A stretch of 37,607 nt of DNA, taken from the IMG/VR virus record IMGVR_UViG_2636415906_000005. One strand, given 5' to 3'. The notes beneath the pieces were generated by a model. It saw nothing but the letters and a program-made list of their open reading frames with translations, was not told where the DNA came from and did not search any database. This document shows positions 5,994 to 19,591 of the stretch, piece by piece (the first letter of the stretch is position 1; each line of letters starts with the position of its first letter). A program made the position numbers and the translations under genes. Source of the stretch: a virus (taxonomy: Duplodnaviria; Heunggongvirae; Uroviricota; Caudoviricetes).

Positions 5994-6401
5994 TTATTGA
6001 TGCTTGTTGCGTTTGCGAGCCTCTAATAGCTCGGTGAACAGGCGATTAAAATTCTCAACGCGGGCGCGGAGTTCGCTGAGTTGTGCTTGTTGCTCTGATT
6101 TAGGAAGTGCGCGATACAAACGCAGCATCTCTAACTCATCTTCCGATAAGTCTAAGGCACTATCGAGTGAAACAGGGGGAGCTGGTGTTTTGTCCTCGTC
6201 GCCAAACAGTATCCAGGTTGGTGAACATTGCAATACCTCGGCGAGGCGATGCAAATTTTGCCCGCGCGGGGCTGTATGGTCACTTTCCCATAATGAAATT
6301 GATGAGCCAGATACGCCAGCAGCTTTGCTTAAACCGTTTTGACTTAAGCCTACCTGCTTACGTCTTTTTCTAATGCGTTGACCTAAAGTTTTCTCGTTCA
6401 T
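5994..6401 (-). CDS. dicA: HTH-type transcriptional repressor DicA (P22 C2-like immunity repressor)
   Basis: Internal Met gives a 135-aa product with an N-terminal XRE-type helix-turn-helix (LSQNGLSKAAGVSGSSISLWE) and the C-terminal block VLQCSPTWILFGDEDK that I recall from K-12 DicA; divergent from a Cro-like gene. Confidence 0.85.
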   Translation of the reverse strand: MNEKTLGQRIRKRRKQVGLSQNGLSKAAGVSGSSISLWESDHTAPRGQNLHRLAEVLQCSPTWILFGDEDKTPAPPVSLDSALDLSEDELEMLRLYRALPKSEQQAQLSELRARVENFNRLFTELLEARKRNKHQ

Positions 6402-6478
6402 ATTTAGATATCTTAATAACCCTTGACTTGAGATTCCTTGAGTGATTAGCATTGAGAAAACTCAATATTGGAGGTGCG
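6402..6478. promoter_or_regulatory. Divergent dicA/dicC promoter-operator region (immunity switch)
   Basis: 77-bp intergenic region between divergent repressor genes; contains the inverted repeat TTGAGAAAACTCAA (6452-6465) and the near-palindrome TTAGATATCTTAA, consistent with repressor operators. Confidence 0.5.
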
Positions 6479-8599: not shown

Positions 8600-8696
8600 T
8601 GTTAGGTATTTTAGACGTTACTAGATTAAAAAGCATTAGTTCAGGAGTGAATTGACATTCTCATTTTTCATGGCACAGGGTAGATCTGGCGTGGTT

Positions 8697-12924: not shown

Positions 12925-13299
12925 ATGCTCATAGATTTGGTTTTACCTTACCCGCCGACGGTGAACACTTACTGGCGACGCCGTGGCAGCACATATTTTA
13001 TCTCGGAGGAGGGAAAGCGTTATCGCCGGGCTGTGGCGCTTATTGTTCGCCAGCAGCGGCTGAAATTAAGCCTGTCCGGAAGGCTGGCGATAAAGGTGAT
13101 TGCAGAGCCACCGGATAAGCGTCGTCGCGACCTGGACAATATCCTGAAAGCACCGCTGGATGCGCTGACGCATGCGGGAGTGTTAATGGACGATGAGCAG
13201 TTTGATGAAATCAATATCGTTCGTGGTCAGCCAGTATCTGGTGGACGTCTGGGGGTGAAGATTTACCCCATAATGCATGAAGAGCAGGTCAAAAAATGA
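12925..13299 (+). CDS. rusA: Crossover junction endodeoxyribonuclease RusA (Holliday junction resolvase)
   Basis: 124-aa product with the RusA-family blocks PPTVNTYWRRRG and DKRRRDLDNILKAPLDALTHAGVLMDD; AAGAGG ribosome-binding site 6 nt before the ATG; standard NinR-region position before Q. Confidence 0.85.
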   Translation: MLIDLVLPYPPTVNTYWRRRGSTYFISEEGKRYRRAVALIVRQQRLKLSLSGRLAIKVIAEPPDKRRRDLDNILKAPLDALTHAGVLMDDEQFDEINIVRGQPVSGGRLGVKIYPIMHEEQVKK

Positions 13300-14117
13300 A
13301 ACTGGAAGATTTACCGAAATACTACTCCCCAAAATCCCCTTGCCTGACCGATGCATCGGCCTCAACGTCAAAAGATGCGCTGAGTATCACTGATGTGATG
13401 GCCGCGCAGGGCATGACACAGAATCGGGCTGAGATGGGGTTTTCTGCGTTCCTGGGGAAAATGGGCATCAGTATGAATGACAGGGCGCGGGCAACAGAAT
13501 TACTGGCAGATTATGCACTCAGTCGGTGCGATCGTGTGGCGGCGTTGAGAAAACTTCCGGTAGAAATAAAACCGTTAGTGATGCGCATTATGGCTTCGTA
13601 CGCTTTTGAGGATTATGCCCGCAGCGCAGCGAGTAAAAAGCAGTGCCCTTGTTGCTATGGGGAAAAATTTATTGAAAGCGTAGTTTTTACAAACAAGGTC
13701 CAGTATCCGGATGGTAAGCCGCCGGTATGGGCAAAGTGTACGAAAGGTGTGTATCCGTCTTACTGGGAAGAATGGAAAAAAGTCAGGGAGGTGGTAAAAG
13801 TTGCCTGTCCGGAGTGTGGCGGAAAGGGTGAGGTTTCCACCGTCTGTAAGGATTGCCGTGGGCGTGGTGTCGCCATTCACCGTGAAGAGTCGGTAAAACG
13901 TGGTATGCCTGTTATCAGAGACTGCCAGCGTTGTGGTGGTCGTGGCTATGAAAGACTACCATCAACGGAGGCATTTAATGCTATATGCGAGGTGACAAAC
14001 CAGATAACACGCGCGTCATGGGAAAAAACAGTTAAGAAATTCTATGATGCGCTGGTGACCCGGTTTGATATTGAAGAAGCATGGGCTGAGCGGCAGTTAA
14101 AAAAGGTAACTAGGTAA
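13296..14117 (+). CDS. Putative late-gene antiterminator (Q-like) with DnaJ-type zinc-finger repeats
   Basis: 273-aa ORF whose start overlaps the rusA stop; contains repeated CxxCxGxG motifs (CPECGGKG, CKDCRGRG, CQRCGGRG); positioned immediately before a tR'-like terminator, tRNA genes and the lysis cassette. Confidence 0.6.
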   Translation: MKLEDLPKYYSPKSPCLTDASASTSKDALSITDVMAAQGMTQNRAEMGFSAFLGKMGISMNDRARATELLADYALSRCDRVAALRKLPVEIKPLVMRIMASYAFEDYARSAASKKQCPCCYGEKFIESVVFTNKVQYPDGKPPVWAKCTKGVYPSYWEEWKKVREVVKVACPECGGKGEVSTVCKDCRGRGVAIHREESVKRGMPVIRDCQRCGGRGYERLPSTEAFNAICEVTNQITRASWEKTVKKFYDALVTRFDIEEAWAERQLKKVTR

Positions 14118-14260: not shown

Positions 14261-14336
14261 GGTCCTTTAGCTCAGTGGTGAGAGCGAGCGACTCATAATC
14301 GCCAGGTCGCTGGTTCAAATCCAGCAAGGGCCACCA
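14261..14336 (+). tRNA. tRNA with anticodon CAU, most similar to tRNA-Ile2 (lysidine, ileX/ileZ-like); tRNA-Met not excluded
   Basis: 76-nt cloverleaf folded by hand: acceptor GGTCCTT/AAGGGCC, D-arm TAGCTCAGTGGTGAGAGC, anticodon loop CTCATAA, T-arm GCTGG-TTCAAAT-CCAGC, 3' CCA; resembles my memory of E. coli tRNA-Ile2. Confidence 0.85.
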
Positions 14337-14446: not shown

Positions 14447-14523
14447 GCGTTGTTAGCTCAGCCGGACAGAGCAATTGCCTTCTAAGCAATCGGTCACTGG
14501 TTCGAATCCAGTACAGCGCGCCA
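14447..14523 (+). tRNA. tRNA-Arg (anticodon UCU)
   Basis: 77-nt cloverleaf: acceptor GCGTTGT/ACAGCGC, anticodon stem ATTGC/GCAAT with loop CTTCTAA, T-arm ACTGG-TTCGAAT-CCAGT, 3' GCCA. Confidence 0.85.
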
Positions 14524-15520: not shown

Positions 15521-15949
15521 ATGGGTTTTCGTAGCGCATCAATTCTTACGTTGATTATTAGTGGGATTATTATCGGGTGCACTGATGCTGTATCGACAAA
15601 TTATCATGACCGTACATCATATTACTCCGATAAAGCAATAGAGACACAGTATGTGAGTTTATCTGAACGTACTTCTGATGTTAGTGAGGATATCCGTCTG
15701 TATGCCCATCAAATCAAGAGCGCCATCGAAAAACAGTTCGGGGATGCGAGTAAGTATTCAGGAAAAGAGTGTACACTGAGAATGCATATGGCCCCGAATG
15801 GCCTTCTACTGGAGGTTAAAAGAGAAAGTGGAGACCTCGATTTATGTCGTGAAGCGATGAATGCGATAAAGAATGCTGATATACCTGCCCCCCCTTCGCC
15901 GGAAGTATATAAAGTATTTCAAAATGGGGTGCTGGATTTTAAACCCTGA
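15521..15949 (+). CDS. Lipoprotein with TolA C-terminal (domain III)-like fold
   Basis: Signal peptide with lipobox-like IIGC; the C-terminal 85 aa (YAHQIKSAIEKQFGDASKYSGKECTLRMHMAPNGLLLEVKRESGDLDLCREAMNAIKNADIPAPPSPEVYKVFQNGVLDFKP) aligns closely with my recollection of E. coli TolA domain III; GAGGA ribosome-binding site before the ATG. Confidence 0.75.
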   Translation: MGFRSASILTLIISGIIIGCTDAVSTNYHDRTSYYSDKAIETQYVSLSERTSDVSEDIRLYAHQIKSAIEKQFGDASKYSGKECTLRMHMAPNGLLLEVKRESGDLDLCREAMNAIKNADIPAPPSPEVYKVFQNGVLDFKP

Positions 15950-16099: not shown

Positions 16100-16495
16100 G
16101 TGGGATTAAAGAAAATCGTTATGTTGACTTTTTGGGTCAGTTTTGTTGCGGGATGCACACCTTTACACCCTTCAGATTGCCACAAAACTACTGCTACAGG
16201 TAGTTGCAGTTCAGGACGCTGGGATGATCAGGATGAATGGGGGGCGCAAGCGCGGGGAATCAGAGCTGCAATTAATGCCAAACTTGATGAGCCGCATAAC
16301 TGGAAAGGGAAAAAATGCAGGTTGCATATGGAATTCTCTCAGGATGGCACGGCGTTAAAAATATCTACCAGTAACGGTGATAAAGCCTATTGCGAAGCGA
16401 TAAAGTCCGCAGCTCATAAAGCCAAATTTCCGGCCTTCAACAATCCGGAAGTCTACAGAGATTTTCAGAAATCTGGCTTTGACATGCGAGGTTAG
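16100..16495 (+). CDS. Paralogous lipoprotein with divergent TolA domain III-like region
   Basis: GTG start after GAGGAG; signal peptide with lipobox VAGC; conserved skeleton GKKCRLHMEF..DG.ALKI....GD.AYCEAI.SAA.KAKFPAF..PEVYRDFQ shared with the upstream paralog. Confidence 0.7.
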   Translation: MGLKKIVMLTFWVSFVAGCTPLHPSDCHKTTATGSCSSGRWDDQDEWGAQARGIRAAINAKLDEPHNWKGKKCRLHMEFSQDGTALKISTSNGDKAYCEAIKSAAHKAKFPAFNNPEVYRDFQKSGFDMRG

Positions 16496-16620
16496 CTCTT
16501 CAATTACTATATCTCATTCATAGCAAACTGACAGATTTGATGATGTTCTATATACGAAACCTGTGATGTCAAGTCTGAGCTAATACAAATAAACATAATA
16601 TCAGAGAAATACATTTTATT

Positions 16621-16643
16621 AGCTCGCTACGGCGAGCTTTTTA
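16621..16643 (+). terminator. Rho-independent terminator between the lipoprotein genes and the lysis cassette
   Basis: AGCTCGC-tacg-GCGAGCT hairpin followed by TTTTT. Confidence 0.6.
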
Positions 16644-16746
16644 TATTGCATCGTCTCCAGCATATATATCAATTAAGGCTCTGATTGATGTGTCTGGAAG
16701 CCTACACATAATAACTATGCCATCCGTTCCGTGCGGAGGTGAGGCT

Positions 16747-16962
16747 ATGAAATCCATGGACAAAATTTCAACAGGCATTGCCTACGGCACCTCCGCAGGC
16801 AGTGCTGGCTACTGGTTTTTACAGCTGCTCGATAAAGTCACGCCCTCACAGTGGGCAGCAATAGGTGTGCTGGGTAGCCTGGTATTTGGCCTGCTGACGT
16901 ACCTGACAAACCTTTATTTCAAGATTAAAGAAGACAAGCGTAAGGCTGCACGGGGAGAGTAA
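16747..16962 (+). CDS. Class II holin (phage 21 S-like pinholin) with dual-start motif
   Basis: 71-aa product [71 protein letters not shown], recognised as S21-type pinholin; Met1/Met4 dual start; GGAGGTGAGG ribosome-binding site. Confidence 0.85.
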
Positions 16963-16966
16963 TTCA

Positions 16967-17311
16967 ATGACTCAAAAATATGAACTGATTGTGAAAGGGA
17001 TCCGCAATTTTGAGAATAAAGTTACGGTAACTTTAGCGTTACGGGACAAAGAACGCTTTGACGGTGAAATTTTTGACCTGGACATCTCGCTGGACCGTGT
17101 TGAAGGTGCCGCGCTGGAGTTTTATGAGGCAGCAGCCAGAAGGAGCATCAGACAGGTCTTCCTGGATGTTGCTGCCGGGTTATGTGAAGGGGATGAGCTG
17201 TCGCCGGAAAAGCGCCCCATAATTTTAGAGGCGCAGAATGTGTGGATAACCTACAAAGGAAAGCTACCGGGAAGAATTACTGGTTCTCTGAAGACTCCGC
17301 CGAAATGGTAA
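16967..17311 (+). CDS. Hypothetical 114-aa protein inserted between holin and endolysin
   Basis: ATG 5 nt after the holin stop with GGGGAGAG upstream; protein-like composition; no family recognised. Confidence 0.5.
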   Translation: MTQKYELIVKGIRNFENKVTVTLALRDKERFDGEIFDLDISLDRVEGAALEFYEAAARRSIRQVFLDVAAGLCEGDELSPEKRPIILEAQNVWITYKGKLPGRITGSLKTPPKW

Positions 17312-17549
17312 TTTCACCAGCATATTTTTCTTCCAGTAATACCGCCAGCCACTTGAAAGAATTTTGTTGTTGCTGGGACCATTTGGGGTTGAGTGATTCA
17401 AGCTGGAGCGATGCCAGTGTTGGTTGCATTTGTTCCTTGGGAATTGAGAATGCCAGATATGAAAATGCGACAGTAAGGGCATTTACATCATCCCGAAGCT
17501 TGGAAATGCAGTCGAGCAACTCCTGTAGAGAAATGGTGCTATTGTCCAT
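17277..17549 (-). CDS. Hypothetical 90-aa protein, convergent with and 3'-overlapping the preceding gene
   Basis: Minus-strand ATG at 17549 preceded by GAGAGGA about 7 nt upstream; overlaps the 16967-17311 gene by about 35 bp at the 3' ends; a competing plus-strand ORF (17242-17574) exists. Confidence 0.4.
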   Translation of the reverse strand: MDNSTISLQELLDCISKLRDDVNALTVAFSYLAFSIPKEQMQPTLASLQLESLNPKWSQQQQNSFKWLAVLLEEKYAGEITISAESSENQ

Positions 17550-17654
17550 AAACAATCCTCTCTATTGTATTTAACTATTCCTTGCCTGATTCAACAGGCC
17601 GGGACAGATAAACATATCCAGGGTTCAGAAACCGATAAATCCTGATAAATATCC

Positions 17655-18197
17655 ATGAACGTAAAAATCAGATACGGCCTGTCGGCTGCCGTTCTGGCAC
17701 TGATTGCCGTCGGTGCGCCTGCGCCTGATATTCTCGACCAGTTTCTGAATGAAAAAGAAGGTAACCACACAACGGCATACCGCGATGGTTCCGGCATCTG
17801 GACCATCTGTCGGGGTGCCACGGTGGTGGATGGAAAACCCGTTTTTCCCGGTATGAAACTGTCGAAGGAAAAATGCGACCAGGTTAACGCCATTGAACGG
17901 GATAAGGCGCTGGCATGGGTGGAGCGCAATATTAAAGTGCCACTGACCGAACCACAGAAAGCGGGTATAGCGTCATTTTGTCCCTATAACATTGGCCCCG
18001 GTAAGTGTTTCCCGTCGACGTTTTATAAGCGGCTGAATGCCGATGATCGTAAGGGGGCATGCGAGGCGATTCGCTGGTGGATAAAAGATGGTGGGCGTGA
18101 TTGCCGCCTGACAAAAGGGCAGAAGAATGGCTGTTATGGGCAGGTCGAGCGGCGCGATCAGGAAAGCGCACTGGCGTGCTGGGGGCTGGAGCAATGA
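17655..18197 (+). CDS. SAR endolysin (T4-lysozyme-like glycoside hydrolase with N-terminal signal-anchor-release segment)
   Basis: N-terminal hydrophobic segment LSAAVLALIAVGAPAP followed by the catalytic E-x8-D-x5-T triad (EGNHTTAYRDGSGIWT); pairs with the pinholin. Confidence 0.85.
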   Translation: MNVKIRYGLSAAVLALIAVGAPAPDILDQFLNEKEGNHTTAYRDGSGIWTICRGATVVDGKPVFPGMKLSKEKCDQVNAIERDKALAWVERNIKVPLTEPQKAGIASFCPYNIGPGKCFPSTFYKRLNADDRKGACEAIRWWIKDGGRDCRLTKGQKNGCYGQVERRDQESALACWGLEQ

Positions 18198-18730
18198 AAA
18201 TTAATCCGGATCTTATAGGCGTTGTCGTTATTGCTGGCCTTTCGGTCGCTCTCGTCAAGAGTTGCTCTCACGCCAGTAATCTTCAGAGCGATAACGACGT
18301 TCTGCGAAGTGACAACTCTATGCTGGGGCAGGTAATCGCCACCCAGGCATTCAACTTCAATCGATTCAATCAGGTTGCAGAACATGCCAACAGTCTTAAC
18401 TCCCTGATCGACACCAGCACCGAAAAAACCGTAATCGAATACCGGGAGATTCTCCGCCGTGAAAAAACCTGTGATCTGCCTGTTCCTGCTGATATCGCTG
18501 GTGGGTTGCTCGAATACACGTACCGTTTACGTGCCAGCGCCATGCACACCGATACCGGCAGACCTAATGAAGCCTATGATCGTACCGCTACCACCAGCTC
18601 AATGACCTACTGCCAAGCTGTCTTGTGGATTAAGCCGCTACTGGCGTTGATAGAAAAAGGAAATAATAATTTTTCGAGTATTCGTGAAATTGATGAGTTG
18701 CGTTACAGACCATCTGAGCATGGCCAGTAA
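18194..18730 (+). CDS. Inner-membrane spanin Rz (i-spanin)
   Basis: ATG overlaps the endolysin stop (ATGA); N-terminal transmembrane segment VVVIAGLSVALV followed by a predicted coiled-coil region; standard position. Confidence 0.75.
   Translation: MKINPDLIGVVVIAGLSVALVKSCSHASNLQSDNDVLRSDNSMLGQVIATQAFNFNRFNQVAEHANSLNSLIDTSTEKTVIEYREILRREKTCDLPVPADIAGGLLEYTYRLRASAMHTDTGRPNEAYDRTATTSSMTYCQAVLWIKPLLALIEKGNNNFSSIREIDELRYRPSEHGQ
18459..18605 (+). CDS. Outer-membrane lipoprotein spanin Rz1 (o-spanin), embedded in Rz in the +1 frame
   Basis: 48-aa hand translation from GTG: MKKPVICLFLLISLVGCSNTRTVYVPAPCTPIPADLMKPMIVPLPPAQ, with lipobox LVGC and a Pro-rich mature part; absent from the ORF track because it is under 60 aa. 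Confidence 0.6.
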   Translation: MKKPVICLFLLISLVGCSNTRTVYVPAPCTPIPADLMKPMIVPLPPAQ

Positions 18731-18898: not shown

Positions 18899-19591
18899 TC
18901 AAATCTTATCTAACTCATTATAGGCTTCGATAATAAAAATTCTGATTTTAATAAGGCATGATTCAATGAAAGGAATTACTTCATGGTCATTCCCATGGAA
19001 TCTTATTTTTTTCTCTTCGGTAATGACTATGTTTAAAGGTACACCATTACCACTTCTTTGTAATTTCCCATTTTCGAAAGTAAAGTCTTCTAATTTTTTG
19101 CCATTGATGTGGTTGTTTTTAAAGAGAATTTTTGCTGAGCTTCCTGCTGTGATTAAACCAAAACCATCTACGCTCACACTTAGGTCTTTAACAGAACTCT
19201 CTTCTCTTAAGGGGATTGGTTGTCTGTGCTTTACTTCATTAGTGAGATTACACATCATTTCCAACCAAGATTCGCCAGTGTGATAATCCTGTATAGAAGT
19301 AAAAATTTTATATAATGGAGAAGATGATGGTGGGTTTATTTTTAGCGTCTTTGAGAAAAATTTATCAATAAACTCTTTTTTTCCGTAAGGGAAATATATT
19401 TTGGGGCGCTCATCATTACTGCGTGGAGAAATATATTTATCATAGGTATCATTAGCGAGATACTCTAAGGAACTTCGTAAGTTTTCCAAAATAGCTTTGA
19501 CTTTTACAGGCTTGATATGCTGTGTCTGTCTCATTATGTCAAGACTTTCTTCAACTTCTTGCAATAAGTCCAACGAGCCTTCTCTAGACAT
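18899..19591 (-). CDS. Hypothetical 230-aa protein, AT-rich minus-strand cargo gene in the bor-equivalent position (candidate accessory/defense gene)
   Basis: Long ORF on the strand opposite all neighbouring late genes, with AAGGAG about 9 nt upstream of the ATG on the minus strand and visibly low GC; no recognised family. Confidence 0.65.
   Translation of the reverse strand: MSREGSLDLLQEVEESLDIMRQTQHIKPVKVKAILENLRSSLEYLANDTYDKYISPRSNDERPKIYFPYGKKEFIDKFFSKTLKINPPSSSPLYKIFTSIQDYHTGESWLEMMCNLTNEVKHRQPIPLREESSVKDLSVSVDGFGLITAGSSAKILFKNNHINGKKLEDFTFENGKLQRSGNGVPLNIVITEEKKIRFHGNDHEVIPFIESCLIKIRIFIIEAYNELDKI

Follow-up and report, generated by a model that had tools for sequence, protein, structure and literature searches.

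A ydfR-family gene and a convergent small gene in a probable cargo slot between the pinholin and endolysin genes of an Escherichia coli lambdoid prophage

Introduction

The S21-R21-Rz/Rz1 cassette of phage 21 encodes a PF04971 holin with an MKSM dual start, a lysozyme of the signal-anchor-release (SAR) type and a spanin, and in R21-type loci the start of the endolysin gene overlaps the stop of the holin gene (TAATG). The Escherichia coli K-12 prophage Qin carries essQ (annotated essD), ydfR, rrrQ and rzpQ in this order. Here we analyzed the lysis region of an E. coli lambdoid prophage, IMG/VR record IMGVR_UViG_2636415906_000005, of which the whole stretch of 37,607 nucleotides is called the window. 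In this region two genes lie between an S21-type pinholin gene and a SAR-type endolysin gene: a ydfR-family gene on the plus strand and a convergent gene on the minus strand, designated ORF90 (ORF, open reading frame).

Two other groups of phage genes were compared. Bor is an outer-membrane lipoprotein, and the lambda bor gene is said, after Barondess and Beckwith, to be oriented against the late operon and expressed in the lysogen. Like the lambda bor-type morons, ORF90 is a small gene that runs against late transcription beside the lysis genes, and it is polymorphic with sharp mosaic boundaries. It differs from Bor in its product, a predicted soluble, acidic and helical protein with no signal sequence. 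Phage proteins that target RNase E have precedents in phiKZ Dip/gp37 and T7 gp0.7. K-12 YdfR resembles these modulators in that it also binds RNase E (PMC13232886).

Results

Gene order between the pinholin and the endolysin

The genes of the lysis region are arranged in the order S21-type pinholin, 114-aa gene (plus strand), convergent 90-aa gene (minus strand), SAR-type lysozyme and spanin. The features at the holin-endolysin junction are as follows.

16747-16962, plus strand: S21-type pinholin gene, 71 aa, with the dual-start MKSM motif (PF04971 'Bacteriophage P21 holin S', E = 8.7e-36; phrog_9876/phrog_20 holin; RefSeq essD)
16967-17311, plus strand: ydfR-family gene, 114 aa, ATG start, DUF1327 (PF07041; phrog_406; RefSeq WP_000192451.1)
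17277-17311: convergent 3' overlap of ydfR and ORF90, 35 nt
17277-17549, minus strand: ORF90, 90 aa, ATG start (phrog_2411, E = 2.2e-59, residues 1-90 on profile positions 1-90 of 90)
17304-17610: mosaic module, 307 bp, comprising ORF90 without the last 9 codons, and the 61 nt that precede the ORF90 start
17655-18197, plus strand: SAR-type endolysin gene, 180 aa, rrrQ-like (PF00959, E = 1e-23; phrog_7 endolysin)

The initial annotation of this DNA had placed two ORFs, at 16967-17311 (plus) and 17277-17549 (minus), overlapping at their 3' ends, between a pinholin gene and a SAR endolysin gene. Both were found at these positions, and the identities of the flanking genes were borne out by the PF04971 and PF00959 matches. 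The translation of the endolysin begins with the segment GLSAAVLALIAVGAPAP, which is weakly hydrophobic and rich in Gly and Ala, and contains an E-x8-D-x5-T motif (read by eye). By this segment the N-terminus of the lysozyme is predicted to be SAR-like.

A dual-start holin of the S21 family, a SAR-like lysozyme and a spanin all appear to be present, as in a phage 21-type cassette. On the other hand, the endolysin gene is not contiguous with the holin gene, as it is in the R21-type loci: it is of the rrrQ type, and 692 bp and two genes lie between.

The order in the window is the same as that in Qin, including the 4-nt gap between the holin gene and ydfR, the rrrQ-type lysozyme gene and the Rz-like gene. 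The two differ at the end of ydfR. K-12 YdfR is 103 aa long and has another C-terminus, and the end of its gene overlaps the start of rrrQ, so Qin lacks ORF90. In the window YdfR is 114 aa long, and the 307-bp module bearing ORF90 stands between ydfR and the lysozyme gene.

Several E. coli chromosomes contain the 1.5-kb lysis region with 100% identity. In these chromosomes both middle ORFs are annotated by the Prokaryotic Genome Annotation Pipeline of NCBI, as 'YdfR family protein' and as 'hypothetical protein' (WP_000370545.1).

We interpreted the locus as, with good probability, a common 'Qin-type' S21 pinholin/SAR-endolysin cassette, in which a mosaic cargo slot at the holin-endolysin junction is occupied by two unrelated genes, ydfR and the reverse-oriented moron ORF90.

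The mosaic junction

Homology to phage 2H10, which encodes a 183-aa YdfR and has no ORF90, extends as far as codon 112 of YdfR (about 17303), breaks off there and starts again at 17611, leaving 44 nt up to the lysozyme start. The recombination junction of the module thus falls within the region where ydfR and ORF90 meet, and the 35-nt overlap of the two genes would most simply be a by-product of the position of this junction. The 44 nt before the lysozyme start (17611-17654, plus strand) were kept across the cassette variants; no Shine-Dalgarno match was seen in them by eye.

The content of the holin-endolysin junction was surveyed in 80 IMG/VR loci with the holins most similar to that of the window, of which 72 were evaluable. 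The lysozyme gene followed the holin gene directly in 56 of the 80 loci. Two of these 56 (L135 and L150) were read base by base and were of the R21 type, with the endolysin start overlapping the holin stop (TAATG). Another 16 of the 80 contained ydfR between the holin and lysozyme genes, 12 without ORF90 and 4 with it. No lysozyme gene was found in 3/80, and the contig was truncated in 5/80. The earlier statement that holin and endolysin genes of the phage 21 type are normally contiguous held in this sample (56/72 evaluable loci).

The holin-ydfR-ORF90-lysozyme order of the window was also found in the complete genome of phage Chlobot, in the partial record of vB_EcoS-783R2, and in the Rac-type prophage region of Nico21(DE3), a derivative of BL21(DE3).

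In a promoter and terminator scan, no intrinsic terminator was called on the plus strand between 16967 and 17655. A looser hairpin scan of this strand gave just one weak hairpin-U4, at about 17120, inside ydfR. The absence of a called terminator, and the same arrangement in deposited phage genomes, make it unlikely that the holin is decoupled from the endolysin, as had been proposed. The description of the two genes as inserted held in part. They are extra material relative to the S-R junction of phage 21, with sharp mosaic boundaries, but the YdfR family habitually occupies the gap between holin and lysozyme, as in Qin.

Two Stx2 (Shiga toxin 2) prophage contigs (L087/L088, 2165-3803) contained the S21 holin gene, ydfR and ORF90, followed by a second lysis set (Phage_holin_8, Phage_holin_3_7 and Peptidase_M15_4) and no lysozyme gene. 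These prophages thus have a tandem pair of holin systems. In L088 this tandem pair lies downstream of stx2AB.

The plus-strand gene belongs to the YdfR family

The plus-strand gene starts 4 nt past the holin stop, is preceded by GGAGAG, and has the same orientation as the lysis genes. Its product matched PF07041 with 145.1 bits (cutoff 25; E = 7.6e-43; profile positions 1-92 of 93) and phrog_406 with E = 2.6e-67. Over residues 1-74 it is 82% identical to K-12 YdfR (P76160). Its position is also that of the family, directly after a co-oriented S21-type holin gene and before the lysozyme gene, as in Qin, mEp460 and 2H10.

Both genes had been taken as unknown. For the plus-strand gene this did not hold, as it encodes a YdfR/DUF1327 protein and hence a member of a known lysis-cassette family. 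The minus-strand gene is catalogued as phrog_2411, a family that is uncharacterised.

In the YdfR family the N-terminal part, about 112 residues long (74 in the K-12 type), is constant, and interchangeable C-termini are joined to it. The lengths of the variants are 103/104, 114, 116, 161, 176 and 183 aa. The family is restricted to Escherichia and Shigella. In complete E. coli genomes ydfR was found at 8615 places in 4348 of 5426 genomes (about 80%). The gene also occurs in the deposited genomes of 101 phages, among them mEp460, BP-4795 and many phages of the Stx1a and Stx2c kinds.

The AlphaFold2 model of YdfR consists of three beta-strands and a long helix, with a C-terminus of low confidence. 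The maximum 19-residue Kyte-Doolittle hydropathy was 0.69; the protein is predicted to be soluble and has neither a transmembrane nor a SAR-like segment. No significant match to YdfR or ORF90 came from structure searches, and none with E < 0.6 from profile searches of the two families against the sequences in PDB.

In the literature, nothing functional was found on DUF1327, ybl58 or the WP accessions, and a paper on the flanking regions of Stx2a phages was silent on the genes between S and R. The sole functional study of YdfR found was that on the K-12 protein (PMC13232886). There, YdfR interacted with residues 1-597 of RNase E in a two-hybrid assay, for which residues 1-72 of YdfR were sufficient, and Strep-tagged YdfR co-purified Rne 1-598 together with DNase-resistant nucleic acid (RNA) (PMC13232886). 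The RNase E-binding region (residues 1-72 in K-12) is conserved in the 114-aa protein, with 82% identity over residues 1-74, and may bind in the same way.

The minus-strand gene behaves as a conserved coding sequence

In the mechanical ORF list, ORF90 is extended to a TTG at 17555; we used the ATG start. The predicted protein is acidic and soluble, with a mass of 10.2 kDa and a pI (isoelectric point) of 4.3. Its AlphaFold2 model has four helices (predicted local distance difference test score, 71). The maximum 19-residue Kyte-Doolittle hydropathy was 0.88, and neither a transmembrane segment nor a signal sequence was seen.

No match to ORF90 was found in Pfam, NCBIfam or PADLOC. A Foldseek search with its model against PDB gave no match with E < 1, and Pfam scans of 14 members of the family, at E up to 1, gave scattered single matches only.

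The coding status of ORF90 was assessed with 96 full-length copies, representing 26 distinct DNA sequences. The frame was intact in 23 of the 26 variants, and the other 3, all singletons, had a nonsense codon. Six reading frames were compared over nine representatives with up to 24% protein divergence, using the 234 nt outside the ydfR overlap. The ORF90 frame had a mean ratio of nonsynonymous to synonymous substitution (dN/dS) of 0.25, no stop in any of the nine, and 29, 27 and 46 variable sites at the first, second and third codon positions. Four other frames had dN/dS values of 0.96-1.33 and contained stops.

Relatives of 30-63% identity were found, by a profile search of the full library and profile word searches, in Citrobacter, many Serratia species, Sodalis, Chania, Gibbsiella and others. 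They have in common the core motif ELLDxIxxLRxxVNxLxxAFSYLAFS...ES. The purifying selection in its own frame, the open frame in diverged copies and the distant homologues indicate, at the level of sequence, that ORF90 is a real and conserved protein-coding gene. The minus-strand ORF thus behaves as a translated one.

Independent distributions of ydfR and ORF90

A module-only search located the ORF90 module at 1352 places, which belong to 1220 of the 5426 complete E. coli genomes (about 22%). Among deposited phages, ORF90 was found in 3 records, versus 101 for ydfR.

ORF90 was intact where ydfR is 5'-deleted. In this lineage (L092-L094; 1589-2123 in L092) a toxin-antitoxin pair, ParD-like/ParE-like, follows the lysozyme gene in the usual place of the spanin genes.

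ORF90 also occurred outside any lysis cassette. Two diverged but intact copies (L099, 2946-3218; L098, 2971-3240), with about 74% DNA identity, were found in such contexts. One lies in a chromosomal island, next to iha, which encodes an adhesin/siderophore receptor, the other adjoins an autotransporter gene on an IncF plasmid, and remnants of insertion sequences (IS) surround both.

In a Citrobacter prophage the ORF90 homologue lies upstream of the holin gene, and in another lambdoid contig ORF90 is near the terminase genes. In all three phage contexts seen, the gene points against the late genes. In the Citrobacter prophage (L109, 5239-5430) the ORF90 homologue faces a convergent ORF of 63 aa, with the C-terminal sequence ITGSLRAPIKL (compare ITGSLKTPPKW at the C-terminus of YdfR). 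The N-terminus of this ORF resembles the C-terminal extension of the 161-aa YdfR variant (P0168). This suggests that C-terminal modules of YdfR may have been shuffled along with ORF90.

In Serratia chromosomes (L103-L108, 5001-5279) a 92-aa homologue (X) is fixed in the order pyrC-dinI-X-bssS-solA, three genes downstream of rne. The canonical LexA box there belongs to dinI; a weak CTG-N10-CAG precedes the ORF90 homologue in some species only.

Since each gene occurs widely without the other, an obligate pairing of ydfR and ORF90 is not supported, and the two would not form a functional pair.

Candidate expression signals of ORF90

The ribosome-binding site ascribed to the minus-strand gene was present. 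The Shine-Dalgarno sequence, AGAGAGGA, is at 17563-17556 on the minus strand, with its GAGG core 7 nt from the ATG. Two further candidate signals were located.

17569-17564, minus strand: -10-like TACAAT, upstream of ORF90
17208-17234, minus strand: candidate weak intrinsic terminator for the ORF90 transcript, inside ydfR; GCGCCTC-N9-GGGGCGC followed by TTTT, -15 kcal/mol in a 40-nt fold

In 11 aligned upstream regions, TACAAT/TATAAT and GAGGATT were kept in the E. coli copies. The candidate terminator lies about 43 nt beyond the ORF90 stop. No LexA box (CTG-N10-CAG) was found in 16500-18300 of the window, and SOS control of ORF90 appears unsupported.

Other genes of the lysis and late regions

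The remaining features of the window considered here are the following.

2-1297: integrase gene
5994-6452: CI-like repressor gene
13296-14117: Q antiterminator gene (PF03589)
16621-16638, plus strand: terminator-like hairpin, 7-bp stem with 5 GC pairs, followed by the T-run TTTTTATATTG, just upstream of the holin gene
18194-18730, plus strand: Rz-like inner-membrane spanin gene (phrog_214 Rz-like spanin, E = 2.1e-54)
18459-18605, plus strand: candidate outer-membrane spanin gene, an embedded +1-frame ORF of 48 aa with the lipobox LVGC
from 20163: terminase gene

The hairpin at 16621-16638, by its position downstream of the Q gene, may be a tR'-type terminator that would be read through by Q-modified late transcription. 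The embedded 48-aa ORF (18459-18605) had no Pfam match, and its assignment as the outer-membrane spanin is putative.

Two tRNA genes lie downstream of Q, at 14261-14336 and 14447-14523 (plus strand). One has the anticodon CAT and is called Met by ARAGORN and Ile by RefSeq; the other is tRNA-Arg(TCT). Between them and the lysis cassette are two tandem genes with a TolA C-terminal domain (15521-15949 and 16100-16495, plus strand; PF06519, E = 3.3e-23 and 1.3e-14), both with lipobox-like N-termini (IIGC and VAGC). Both are possible morons, which would interfere with colicins or phages that depend on Tol.

Between the spanin and terminase genes, a gene of 230 aa (18899-19591, minus strand; RefSeq 'hypothetical') runs opposite to the late genes. 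It had no Pfam or PADLOC match. It is a second reverse-oriented cargo gene of the late region.

Discussion

The preferred reading of the locus, a Qin-type cassette with a cargo slot, makes the following predictions for the two genes. As ydfR is co-oriented with the holin gene and tightly abuts it, YdfR would be made with the late/lysis transcript. Judging from its K-12 homologue, it would be a soluble cytoplasmic protein with an N-terminal part, of roughly 72 residues, that binds RNase E in the catalytic half of the enzyme and may bind RNA as well. This homology suggests that YdfR would adjust host RNA decay late in infection, with no action on the envelope.

ORF90, on the other hand, would be an independent gene of the moron type. 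Among related phages it shows presence/absence polymorphism and sharp mosaic junctions, as expected of a moron. It would most probably be expressed in the lysogen from its own weak promoter, as a small acidic four-helix cytoplasmic protein that probably acts by binding another protein. These specifics are proposed with low confidence. Lysis is probably not disturbed by either gene.

Several observations weigh against parts of this reading. It was K-12 YdfR, with its 103 aa and another C-terminus, that was shown to interact with RNase E, and not the 114-aa variant; overproduction of the K-12 protein altered few transcripts (PMC13232886). That ydfR so strictly occupies the place next to the holin gene hints at some lysis-related role that the reading does not include. 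The fold and structure searches gave no functional clue for YdfR or ORF90. For ORF90, no promoter was called upstream in the promoter scan. The only -35-like hexamer, TTGAAT (17594-17589), is 19 nt from TACAAT, a poor spacing, and TACAAT is just about 6 nt ahead of the Shine-Dalgarno sequence. The candidate terminator was equally kept in ydfR copies without ORF90 (2H10), so it may merely mirror coding constraint on ydfR.

The alternative that survives best, though we consider it unlikely, is a role of YdfR, by itself or jointly with ORF90, as an accessory or timing factor of lysis, modulating the triggering of the pinholin or the release of the SAR endolysin. An S21-type holin gene always stands immediately before ydfR, 4 nt away, and the K-12 copy of ydfR overlaps the start of rrrQ with its end. 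The holin-ydfR-ORF90 unit stays together even before the different lysis set of the Stx2 prophages. A genetic screen, as cited in PMC13232886, ties ydfR to envelope integrity. Against this, YdfR and ORF90 are predicted to be soluble, unlike antiholins and other membrane-embedded lysis regulators, and ydfR is absent, with the lysozyme directly after the holin, from the 56 of 72 evaluable loci mentioned above. RNase E, an RNA-decay enzyme, is not known to take part in lysis. It is the sole reported partner of K-12 YdfR, overproduction of which gave no growth or lysis phenotype (PMC13232886). The lysis-timing module suggested in the initial annotation is not supported.

A broader and rather speculative possibility concerns ORF90. 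Among the Serratia neighbours of its homologue, bssS is a biofilm regulator gene and dinI an SOS gene. ORF90 might represent a previously unstudied family of small acidic helical regulators common to enterobacterial chromosomes (Serratia dinI-bssS) and lambdoid prophages, antisense to lysis or late genes in all the phage contexts seen. In the lysogen it would then be either a stress- or SOS-linked regulator or a means of restraining leaky expression of the lysis genes, by transcription that runs convergently into ydfR and the pinholin gene; YdfR, through its binding of RNase E, might contribute to this restraint.

Slightly less probable still is that ORF90 is a prophage-borne gene for defence or superinfection exclusion, or that its transcript, running antisense into ydfR and the holin gene, guards lysogens against leaky expression of the holin. 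The gene is presence/absence-polymorphic cargo in a variable slot, directed against the late genes; no strong minus-strand terminator stands ahead of the holin gene; and ORF90 occurs in other mobile contexts with flanking IS remnants. However, it had no PADLOC match, and the purifying selection acts on the protein, not on the RNA alone. In several Serratia species the homologue is a stable core chromosomal gene in a non-phage context, with which a general cellular role fits better than defence.

It is very improbable that the two genes form a toxin-antitoxin-like or mutually antisense-regulated module, as had also been suggested. If both were transcribed at once, the 35-nt 3' overlap would give complementary transcript ends. 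However, each gene is widely found without the other (8615 ydfR versus 1352 ORF90 places), and ORF90 is intact where ydfR is truncated. The genes are convergent and not co-operonic, in contrast to the co-transcribed and co-inherited genes of type II systems, and neither protein is a small hydrophobic type I toxin, the maximum hydropathy being 0.69 for YdfR and 0.88 for ORF90. No match to a toxin-antitoxin or defence system was found in Pfam, NCBIfam or PADLOC, and overproduced K-12 YdfR was not toxic and did not impair growth (PMC13232886).

That ORF90 is a chance ORF or an antisense shadow of plus-strand coding sequence can practically be dismissed: a 110-aa plus-strand ORF (17242-17574) covers the same DNA with an apparent dN/dS of 0.19, but this low value comes from the coincidence of its wobble positions with those of the ORF90 frame; among the nine representatives, the four most diverged each interrupt the plus-strand frame with 1-2 stops, and the ORF90 frame with none; and ORF90 homologues stand alone in unrelated chromosomal contexts. 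The 17242-17574 ORF is a useful caution for ORF calling. A special case, in which a longer YdfR would have had a C-terminal extension, now decayed, with ORF90 as its antisense shadow, was rejected; the 183-aa 2H10 protein aligns to residues 1-112 only, and its extension aligned to this DNA in no frame.

The content of the holin-endolysin gap is already catalogued, and the cassette is one of the ordinary and common variants of prophages and does not represent a new kind of system, as the YdfR family is known, ORF90 is catalogued, and ORF90 is present in about one-fifth of complete E. coli genomes. The practical outcome is a corrected annotation: the two genes are a catalogued YdfR-family gene and a catalogued hypothetical gene. 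Two modest leads come out of the analysis, both widespread small proteins. YdfR has one reported partner, RNase E, and is abundant in E. coli, always encoded beside the pinholin gene. ORF90 is a truly conserved small protein without a family annotation.

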